Positions 15,959-16,839 of a stretch of 64,000 nucleotides of DNA are shown one piece after another. The stretch lies in assembly GCF_000026545.1 (NCBI RefSeq), contig NC_011601.1. One strand, 5' to 3'. A program made the translations under genes and the position numbers. This stretch comes from Escherichia coli O127:H6 str. E2348/69. Its GTDB lineage: Bacteria > Pseudomonadota > Gammaproteobacteria > Enterobacterales > Enterobacteriaceae. Below the pieces are notes generated by a model that was given only the letters and a program-made list of their open reading frames with translations, had not been told where the DNA came from and did no database searches. Within the stretch, counting starts at the first letter, position 1, and each line of letters opens with the position of its first letter.

Positions 15959-16558
15959 TTATCGATTTTTTGCTTGTTTTTTGCTCCATGCCAAAATCTC
16001 TGCGGCATCAAACATTACTCGCCTCTCACCCATCTTAACTGGTTTTGGAAAATCGGGTCTCATCTTCCATCGCTGTAATGTGCTTTTGCTAACAGCAAGA
16101 AAATCGGCTACCTTTTGCACACTCACATATCCTTGGCTTGGAAAATCAGAGCTGTTGACATCATTCTCCCGTTCTATCCTTGCCTCTTCATGAAAACCAG
16201 CCTTCTTTGAAGGTATTTTAAGCGGTCTCTCCCGCGCTTTATCTTTTACAGAGTAAGACTCGATCCTGAGCTTTTTGTGTATCTTAAGAGGAGGTTTTTT
16301 GGCTGGTGGCTCAGGCGTCGGTTCTGGTGGTAAATAGTAATAGTAAGCCCTCACTAAATCTTCTGGTGTCAGTACACCGTAACTCATTGTTTCACGATCC
16401 GGGCGTAGTTCCAGTACCCCAAATCTAAACAACTTGTCCATTTCTGCGCTTGTTATTTCGAAGTGTTCTGACTGCTGCCCCCGAAGCTGGTAAGTTAACG
16501 CTTCTCTGGCTTCTTCAATATCATATTCGGGATGAGGAAAATGTGGTTTGCGAATCAT
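15959..16558 (-). CDS. Two-domain protein: N-terminal unknown domain, Pro-rich linker, C-terminal AlpA/excisionase-type HTH
   Basis: 199 aa; 'YVSVQKVADFLAVSKSTLQRWKMRPDFPKPVKMGERRVMFDAAEILAWSKK' is AlpA-like; linker 'PPEPTPEPPAKKPP'; ATG start with SD. Confidence 0.55.
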   Translation of the reverse strand: MIRKPHFPHPEYDIEEAREALTYQLRGQQSEHFEITSAEMDKLFRFGVLELRPDRETMSYGVLTPEDLVRAYYYYLPPEPTPEPPAKKPPLKIHKKLRIESYSVKDKARERPLKIPSKKAGFHEEARIERENDVNSSDFPSQGYVSVQKVADFLAVSKSTLQRWKMRPDFPKPVKMGERRVMFDAAEILAWSKKQAKNR

Positions 16559-16662
16559 CTAACTACCTAAACATCTACCCAAGAATTAATGCAAAAGTAA
16601 ACAATATCATATACAATATAAATGGTAAGTAGTTACCTAATTATTGGAGTAAGAAATTACAT

Positions 16663-16839
16663 ATGGATATGACCATGCAGGAATTACGGGCTACTCTAAA
16701 CCTATCCCCCAACTATCCTGAAGAAAACCACTTTCTAGATGATAATCTAACGGAAGAACTCGATAATGAGGAAATTCGACAACATCTGGGAATAGATTCG
16801 GATTGGATGGATGCAGTGGACACTAGCCAGATAATTTGA
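16663..16839 (+). CDS. Candidate small acidic protein (58 aa), below the ORF-track size cutoff
   Basis: Hand-translated: MDMTMQELRATLNLSPNYPEENHFLDDNLTEELDNEEIRQHLGIDSDWMDAVDTSQII*; 'ggag' SD 9 nt upstream of the ATG; divergent from the 199-aa gene. Confidence 0.3.
   Translation: MDMTMQELRATLNLSPNYPEENHFLDDNLTEELDNEEIRQHLGIDSDWMDAVDTSQII

Follow-up and report, generated by a model that had tools for sequence, protein, structure and literature searches.

What are two divergent genes doing at the edge of an anti-phage operon? Do they serve that operon, or the mobile element that carries it? The question arises in a stretch of 64,000 nucleotides from the chromosome of Escherichia coli O127:H6 str. 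E2348/69 (contig NC_011601.1), which we call the window. Here the gene for a 199-residue protein with a C-terminal helix-turn-helix (HTH), termed HTH-199, lies back to back with a small open reading frame (ORF) for an acidic protein of 58 residues, adjacent to the Hailong anti-phage system (Table 1). A first-pass annotation had treated the two as one functional pair that might regulate or neutralise the neighbouring cargo. Comparison of related islands indicates that both genes belong to the island backbone and are not Hailong accessories. We favour a role for HTH-199 as an excision or integrase-control factor of the integration module found in islands at the der gene (der-type islands), a reading to which we assign a probability of roughly 0.45.

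The island occupies 15863-23333 (7.5 kb) and is inserted in the 3′ end of der, as alignment of the empty K-12 site with both junctions reveals. These junctions place the HTH-199 gene, as had been proposed, at the end of the element opposite the integrase gene (int). The HTH-199 gene occurs in 19 of 5,426 complete E. coli genomes, always at the der site and only with the der-type integrase. Four lineages of the island are distinguished by their cargo. Lineage A (E2348/69) carries Hailong, lineage B (T28R) an unknown two-gene set, lineage C (AH50, E. albertii) a cyclic oligonucleotide-based anti-phage signalling system (CBASS) consisting of a DncV-like protein and Cap15, and lineage D (PSS-16 and six others) a pair encoding an ATPase and a DUF2357 protein on the opposite strand. 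The cargo slot, 16856-19373, has the same position in all four. A left block (15839-16859) is conserved at 91-94% and a right block (about 19374-23600) at 96-98%, with everything between them replaced. The left block is much more diverged than the right, synonymous divergence (dS) in the small ORF reaching 0.6. In lineage D the left block stops at 16671, the ninth base of the small ORF, which is reduced to eight codons in these seven of the 19 genomes; HTH-199 and the spacer upstream of it survive there.

The module therefore stands beside Hailong, CBASS and the unknown gene pair at 91-94% identity, and the 199-residue gene alone accompanies the fourth cargo. Because HTH-199 adjoins four cargoes that are unrelated to one another, three of these beside the intact pair, and both cargo orientations occur, neither gene can be a dedicated regulator or neutraliser of Hailong. 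The proposal that the pair controls the adjacent cargo, with the acidic protein acting for example as an antitoxin or neutraliser of the HalA effector, would account for the adjacency and for the convergence of the small ORF with halB, and small acidic proteins can be neutralisers. Against it, the small ORF is missing from lineage D and from some elements of a related family, and PADLOC gives nothing for the small protein and a weak match to the HTH only for HTH-199. Hailong itself has been published as a system of two genes, HalA and HalB (review PMC13276650). In the window HalA, a pentapeptide-repeat membrane effector, scores 295 bits with NCBIfam NF051894 (cut-off 250) and HalB, a nucleotidyltransferase, 187.7 bits with NF051895, just under the cut-off of 190. 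Comparative genomics largely refutes a role in cargo regulation, which we consider highly improbable.

Both ORFs lie exactly where the first-pass annotation had placed them, and both are real genes, not chance ORFs. Each is conserved with a ratio of nonsynonymous to synonymous substitution (dN/dS) below 1, and a PHROG family covers the small one from end to end. Residues 1-57 of the 58 match phrog_35119 with E=5.4e-14, and the homologue in the related family does so with E=1.3e-7; this PHROG carries no annotation and supplies a family name only. Across lineages A-C the small ORF is free of indels; dS reaches 0.6, dN/dS is 0.18-0.30, and synonymous changes are in significant excess (binomial p=1e-4). 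Exact or near-exact copies of the protein always accompany a divergent 199-residue AlpA gene, in der-type elements. When five lineages are aligned over 58 residues the motifs ELRxxLxL[ST]PxYPExN and LG...D.SQ are invariant. The annotation had looked to homologous elements for conservation of this ORF, and there it is conserved. The protein is highly acidic, as had been noted, with 15 Asp and Glu against two Lys and Arg residues, a net charge of -13 and an isoelectric point (pI) of 4.05. The Shine-Dalgarno sequence, earlier described as good, proved less so: GGAG ends 13 nt before the ATG, a usable spacing that is longer than optimal. In genomes of other strains the small ORF is annotated, as is a 129-residue protein encoded elsewhere in the island.

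Structure prediction, which had been suggested for both proteins, succeeded for part of one. An AlphaFold2 model of HTH-199 from the single sequence is confident only in a winged helix, residues 141-199, with predicted local distance difference test (pLDDT) values of 77-87; for the 58-residue protein the values of 30-44 make the prediction uninformative. The nearest solved folds to HTH-199 identified by Foldseek are excisionases, namely mycobacteriophage Pukovnik Xis, RdfS and the GIsul2 Xis (8c3t), with target TM-scores of 0.7-0.83 and E-values of at least 0.013 for the whole HTH-199 query. The sole sequence match in the PDB is also 8c3t (E=0.024). Residues 145-191 match Pfam Phage_AlpA, PF05930, with 34.7 bits (cut-off 21), and the AlpA-type HTH of the first-pass annotation is upheld. 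By profile and fold the C-terminal domain is an AlpA-family member; the whole protein is an atypical long variant, with 142 residues before the HTH in a family of single-domain proteins of about 60-90 residues. HTH-199 had been described as a second AlpA. It does carry an AlpA domain, but it is better regarded as the only bona fide PF05930 protein of the island, the only one above threshold, since alpA60, the small HTH protein encoded next to int, has HTH_17 as its best match at a sub-threshold E=0.0016.

The earlier description of the remainder as a domain of about 140 residues that defied assignment holds in one respect. There is no Pfam match in the N-terminal part even at E<=10, and when residues 1-143 were compared exhaustively with 1.84 billion representative proteins by HMMER profile search, the sole match was a 61-residue fragment of HTH-199 itself. 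It is not one domain, however, but an acidic segment of about 75 residues, a Pro-rich hinge and a basic tract. The Pro-rich linker is present as noted (LPPEPTPEPPAKKPP, residues 76-90) and residues 85-120 carry a net charge of +10. For residues 1-75 a helix-helix-hairpin-helix secondary structure is predicted with low confidence. The possibility that this segment is a degenerate second winged helix derived by internal duplication was ruled out (hhalign probability 1.2%). Searches with a word index gave one cluster for full-length HTH-199 and none for the HTH alone, and matches on plasmids are limited to the HTH. The N-terminal extension is an orphan restricted to Escherichia. dN/dS is about 0.02 in the HTH, a sign of strong purifying selection, 0.05-0.8 in the N-terminal segment and about 0.2-2.8 in the linker.

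A second family of islands allows the roles of the two genes to be separated. These sister islands are found at tRNA-Arg (argW) in dozens of E. coli genomes (loci L015, L016 and L020-L023), with the 3′ end of the tRNA repeated over 23 nt on both sides. They encode an integrase, an overlapping 246-residue protein, a canonical 63-residue AlpA, a further 63-residue ORF, a homologue of alpA60, a 128-residue protein, a rolling-circle replication (RCR) Rep, cargo, a small acidic protein and a DNA invertase. The cargo includes GapS6a/b, a GTPase pair and others. Identity to the der-type proteins is 72% for alpA60, 59% for the 128-residue counterpart of the 129-residue protein (hyp129) and 31-35% for Rep, and only 26% for the P4-type integrase. 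The sister small acidic proteins, of 58-68 residues, are 39-50% identical to the 58-residue protein over the full length. Their genes are placed equivalently, with the cargo slot on one side and, on the other, the final gene ahead of the distal attachment (att) site. They are divergent from that final gene, which encodes the DNA invertase (phrog_125), unrelated to HTH-199. Descent of HTH-199 from this invertase was ruled out, as there is no six-frame or nucleotide similarity. The invertase spacer carries CCCTATTGAGA repeats, one inverted and two direct. A pattern scan with Rep over 100,044 species found the family only in Escherichia.

The two families differ in the integrase and its att sites, the genes adjoining int, and the distal gene, all of which are contiguous in the excised circle. 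These differing parts look like a single integration module, swapped as a unit and bounded by the small ORF and alpA60. There is one true PF05930 protein per module, HTH-199 at der and the 63-residue AlpA (66.6 bits) beside int at argW; the latter is the only sister protein that matches the HTH of HTH-199 (E=8.5e-5). This suggests that the true AlpA travels with the integrase and the att type. alpA60, 72% shared despite different integrases and att sites, is less likely to be an integrase-specific factor. The small ORF, kept in the sisters beside an invertase, belongs to the shared backbone and is not partnered specifically with HTH-199 or with the cargo. It appears to be a separate, older backbone gene with deeper roots than HTH-199, and the notion of one functional pair is not supported, given also the ORF of eight codons in lineage D. 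That loss, and the lack of a small acidic ORF in some sister elements, indicates that the 58-residue protein is dispensable for chromosomal persistence.

How might HTH-199 serve the integration module? In the excised circle the order on one strand is the HTH-199 gene, attP with its arm-type sites, then int. The HTH-199 stop codon lies 96 nt from the attL core, and the segments 15924-15962 and 23185-23223 form an imperfect 39-nt direct repeat. The element TGGGTACAC occurs four times in 64 kb, against 0.27 expected, with all copies within about 200 nt of the island ends. P4-type integrases are typically partnered with AlpA/Vis-type factors. For the PICMI satellites, small Vibrio islands that depend on phages, AlpA, a protein similar to TorI/Xis, is both necessary and sufficient for excision (PMC10803314). 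In Pseudomonas tmRNA islands int and alpA lie at opposite ends, and an inovirus Gp2-like gene is present (PMC12595487). On our preferred reading the excisionase-fold winged helix of HTH-199 would bind DNA of the island end or control region and act with the P4-type integrase as a recombination directionality factor (RDF), a regulator of the integrase, or both. The basic tract and the acidic N-terminal segment would be additions particular to this lineage, the former perhaps adding DNA contacts and the latter control or a protein contact. The 58-residue protein, too acidic to bind DNA and transcribed away from the integration module, would most likely have a protein as its target, either one that the two element families share or one of the host or a helper, for instance as a modulator resembling a DNA mimic.

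Several points weigh against this reading. The canonical place of AlpA, beside int, is held by alpA60, which could itself be the true excision factor. With 199 residues HTH-199 exceeds the classical RDFs, which consist of one domain and have 60-90 residues. A strong terminator between attP and int makes simple read-through from HTH-199 into int unlikely; the terminator is borne by the island and serves der, and expression of int by read-through in the circle is disfavoured. No DNA target of HTH-199 was identified, and no motif shared by the spacer and the att arms exceeds chance. What the analysis shows directly is the anatomy, conservation and modularity of the two genes and their independence from cargo; the DNA targets, the role in excision and any activity of the small protein are inferred. 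Current mobility is unproven, in that neither an attP-junction pattern in metagenome contigs nor a copy of HTH-199 in IMG/VR was found. The co-variation of the AlpA protein with the integrase rests on two element families only. Finally, alpA_1 of EcCIMP1, the sole far-end second AlpA of an E. coli island to have been tested, is dispensable for excision of its own island (PMC11773190).

The divergent arrangement raises a different possibility, that HTH-199 is a transcriptional switch, repressor or activator, working on the 104-bp spacer to control its own gene, the small ORF and the plus-strand cargo of lineage D. Its N-terminal segment would sense a helper-phage or host signal in the manner of Stl, and the acidic protein would either be made first once rightward transcription is de-repressed or counter the regulator by titrating its basic tract. 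The length of the spacer is constant in lineages A-C. In lineage D, where the ORF itself was replaced, the spacer persists as far as base nine of that ORF, altered only by small indels (4 nt deleted, 1 nt inserted). It contains a conserved block, AAATGGTAAGTAGTTAC, and two copies of GTAAGWARTTAC 24 nt apart. Neither strand of the spacer has a strong sigma-70 consensus, as expected of factor-dependent promoters. The charges of the 58-residue protein (-13) and of HTH-199 residues 85-120 (+10) are complementary, and AlpA is the master transcriptional regulator in Gram-negative phage-inducible chromosomal islands (PICIs) (PMC11773190). The two proteins are not an obligate pair, however, since the small ORF persists in sisters that lack HTH-199 and is lost from seven of the 19 genomes that have it. 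The count of GTAAGWARTTAC, a motif defined post hoc, was equalled by chance too often to be significant (6/100 shuffles), and no significant operator motif was found; nor does the spacer share with attL, attR, the putative origin region or the int-alpA spacer any motif above shuffled controls. An AlphaFold2 model of the 58-residue protein fused by a linker to HTH-199, built from a four-row alignment, has a mean pLDDT of 45 and displays no interface or confident contact. We judge a switch of this kind somewhat unlikely.

HTH-199 might instead act in trans, as an excisionase or regulator of another mobile element such as a helper prophage or a second island, and not on its own island. The excisionase-like fold is compatible with this, and the island, without packaging or transfer genes, must depend on a helper. 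There is also a precedent in EcCIMP1: the PICI needs its second AlpA, opposite int, neither for excision nor for packaging, and this protein can partly stand in for the helper Xis (PMC11773190). But whereas alpA_1 resembled the helper Xis, tblastn of HTH-199 against 50,697 phage genomes gave nothing at E<=1e-3; IMG/VR holds no copy, and no helper is known. Action on another element is in our view very unlikely.

With regard to the 58-residue protein, the high negative charge invites the idea of a DNA mimic, an anti-restriction or anti-defence factor that would protect the island in a new host; this is compatible with any of the roles considered for HTH-199. The charge is retained in the sister subfamily (-11), the protein is part of the conserved backbone of an element family that moves between Escherichia strains, and it has its own transcription unit followed by a strong hairpin. 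On the other side, the case rests on charge alone, the protein has only 58 residues, its gene is frequently lost and the AlphaFold2 model is unreliable. It bears no similarity to ArdA, Ocr, Arn or any Pfam or PADLOC family, searches of Pfam, NCBIfam and PADLOC yielding nothing beyond a sub-threshold Skp1 match. We rate such an activity as distinctly unlikely. A type II toxin-antitoxin pair was considered and rejected: the genes are divergent and not in an operon, the partner gene differs between the two families, and Pfam, PADLOC and NCBIfam detect no toxin domain in either HTH-199 or the 58-residue protein.

In lineages B and C a long hairpin directly follows the stop codon of the small ORF (L002 11004-11045, -33.1 kcal/mol, z -7.9; L003 11013-11048, -20.5 kcal/mol, z -4.5). 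The sequences of the arms differ between the two lineages, yet both pair. The hairpin is absent in the window. BLAST block boundaries at 16855-16859 place the transition from backbone to cargo at the hairpin loop, and the structure might terminate transcription in both directions or act as a hot spot of recombination through which cargo is exchanged.

Table 1. Features of the der island in E2348/69, in order along the window.
Feature	Position	Strand	Details
attL core	15842..15862		Copy of the last ~21 nt of der; island DNA from 15863; aligned with empty K-12 site
Arm-type repeat	15924..15962	+	TGGGTACAC then palindrome TTGTGTACACA; overlaps HTH-199 stop codon
HTH-199 gene	15959..16558	-	ORF, 199 aa
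HTH-199 AlpA-type winged helix	15962..16132		Residues 143-199
HTH-199 Pro-rich hinge and basic tract	16133..16333		Residues 76-142
HTH-199 acidic N-terminal segment	16334..16558		Residues 1-75; net charge -5
Divergent control region	16559..16662		104 bp between HTH-199 and small ORF; four-lineage alignment
58-aa acidic protein gene	16663..16839	+	phrog_35119 family; absent from RefSeq E2348/69 annotation
End of conserved left block, edge of cargo slot	16840..16859	+	Left hairpin arm; right arm lost in window
Hailong anti-phage system	17065..18847	-	HalA 17726-18847, HalB 17065-17724
HUH rolling-circle Rep-like protein	19992..20990	-	PF23343, 27.1 bits, just under cut-off
hyp129	21043..21432	-	Backbone protein, 129 aa
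alpA60	21440..21622	-	HTH_17/MerR-like backbone protein, 60 aa
P4-type tyrosine integrase (int)	21825..23096	-	Arm-DNA-bind_3, Phage_int_M and Phage_integrase
Integrase-side arm-type sites	23132..23223		Two inverted TGGGTACAC and one direct copy with palindrome TTGTGTACACA
attR core	23313..23333		3′ end of der; same K-12 junction alignment

Read on the minus strand from der inward, the integrated order is int, alpA60, hyp129, Rep, a non-coding tract and cargo, with the HTH-199/small-ORF block last before attL. The HUH (LHLHMIV) and YxxK motifs of Rep are kept in comparison with the sister Rep, which the Prokaryotic Genome Annotation Pipeline (PGAP) names 'rolling circle replication-associated protein'. 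Downstream of Rep, the conserved non-coding tract of about 600 nt (19374-19991) is a candidate rolling-circle origin; the part from 19545 to 19991 contains an AT-rich tract and two GC-rich hairpin repeats, GAGAAAGCCGCCAAAGGCGGCG, at 19833-19854 and 19886-19907. Searches with Pfam and PHROG profiles found no packaging or transfer genes in the island. Compared with the core of PICIs and PICMIs, int and AlpA-type genes are present and the replicase is an HUH Rep rather than a primase. The terminator between attP and int, a hairpin at about 23256-23272 on the minus strand, lies in a segment (23250-23280) where GCCCGCAATATGCGGGC is followed by a T-run; the island here supplies the terminator of the essential gene der and rebuilds its last codons. 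A weak, sub-threshold Rfam match, 'Trp_leader', covers this structure, and no Rfam family matched above threshold between 15 and 24 kb of the window.

Some further observations concern the island and its surroundings. The RefSeq annotation of E2348/69 has a 203-residue hypothetical protein (21043-21654, minus strand) that overlaps alpA60 in another frame. The Hailong-specific spacer contains a near-consensus sigma-70 site at 16909-16936 on the plus strand (TTGACA-16-TATGAT, 11/12), antisense into the 3′ end of halB. A 17-nt inverted repeat (15834-15850 and 16648-16664) is taken as chance, since it falls in an E2348/69-specific flank and is not conserved. The stretch that separates yfgJ from the island in E2348/69 (9508-15833) holds an adhesin/SinI/SinH inverse-autotransporter locus and an IS4 remnant; the left att flank there departs from K-12 at four positions, suggesting that this site had undergone a previous event. 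A second tyrosine integrase gene (3086-4339, minus strand) directly adjoins guaA, which is an insertion site of other islands such as GIsul2. E. coli OW1E2 (L005) retains a decayed island in which only the HTH-coding 3′ end of the 199-residue gene and the 5′ end of int are left, separated by IS3 and IS30 insertions.

The observation stands, with somewhat more structure than first thought; it is of a familiar kind and the mechanism is unproven. Its value lies partly in a warning, that genes adjoining a defence operon are not automatically its regulators. The locus also combines a backbone of 5 kb, which includes an HUH Rep, with a cleanly bounded slot for cargo (Hailong, CBASS, GapS6 and others) and an integration module swapped as one block. 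Allocating HTH-199 to that module and the 58-residue protein to the backbone guides the choice of genes for tests of excision, replication and transfer. The orphan N-terminal extension and the small-protein family, which is uncharacterised, are real if modest puzzles. In the literature we found no paper naming the RefSeq accessions and no description of this island family. A more ambitious view is that the der-site islands and their tRNA-Arg sisters constitute an undescribed, Escherichia-restricted family of minimal rolling-circle hitchhiker elements with three exchangeable parts, namely an integration module, a slot for defence cargo and a fixed backbone. The 58-residue protein would then be a hallmark effector that manipulates a protein of the helper or the host, perhaps by mimicking DNA, and the N-terminal segment of HTH-199 a new sensor that couples a helper signal to excision. 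We regard this combination as rather unlikely.

How do these genes compare with known systems? The AlpA/Vis/TorI-type excisionase-regulators (PF05930), such as the PICMI AlpA and the GIsul2 excisionase (8c3t), share with HTH-199 the excisionase fold of its C-terminal 57 residues and the association with a P4-type integrase and arm-type sites. HTH-199 differs in being three times longer, with a 142-residue N-terminal extension that has no homologue, and in the position of its gene, across att from int and not beside it. The 58-residue protein is like the small acidic DNA mimics Ocr, ArdA, Arn and phi29 p56 in size and extreme negative charge; there is no sequence similarity, and this is a resemblance only.

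The arrangement in EcCIMP1 is close, with an AlpA gene, alpA_1, at the island end opposite int and an additional HTH gene proximal to int (PMC11773190). alpA_1, however, is short, Xis-like, similar to a helper Xis and encoded on the strand opposite to most genes of its island, whereas for HTH-199 no relative was found in phages, its gene runs in the same direction as int, and the protein bears the orphan extension. At the level of the whole element, the Pseudomonas tmRNA islands I23, I44 and I55 (PMC12595487) and the PICMIs (PMC10803314) are comparable: they too are small or 'integrase-only', have a tyrosine integrase gene at one extremity, and combine it with an AlpA-type gene, anti-phage cargo and a gene for replication, either inovirus Gp2-like or a primase. 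The Pseudomonas islands also resemble the der-type island in that alpA and int stand at opposite ends. The family described here is set apart by its restriction to Escherichia, an HUH Rep in place of a primase, the use of der or tRNA-Arg as integration site and the lack of a demonstrated helper. Many E. coli defence systems reside in 'integrase-only' islands of unknown mobility (PMC10121019), and the der locus is a compact and comparable example; it resembles the defence islands of this type that Hochhauser et al. suspected to be uncharacterised satellites (PMC10121019).

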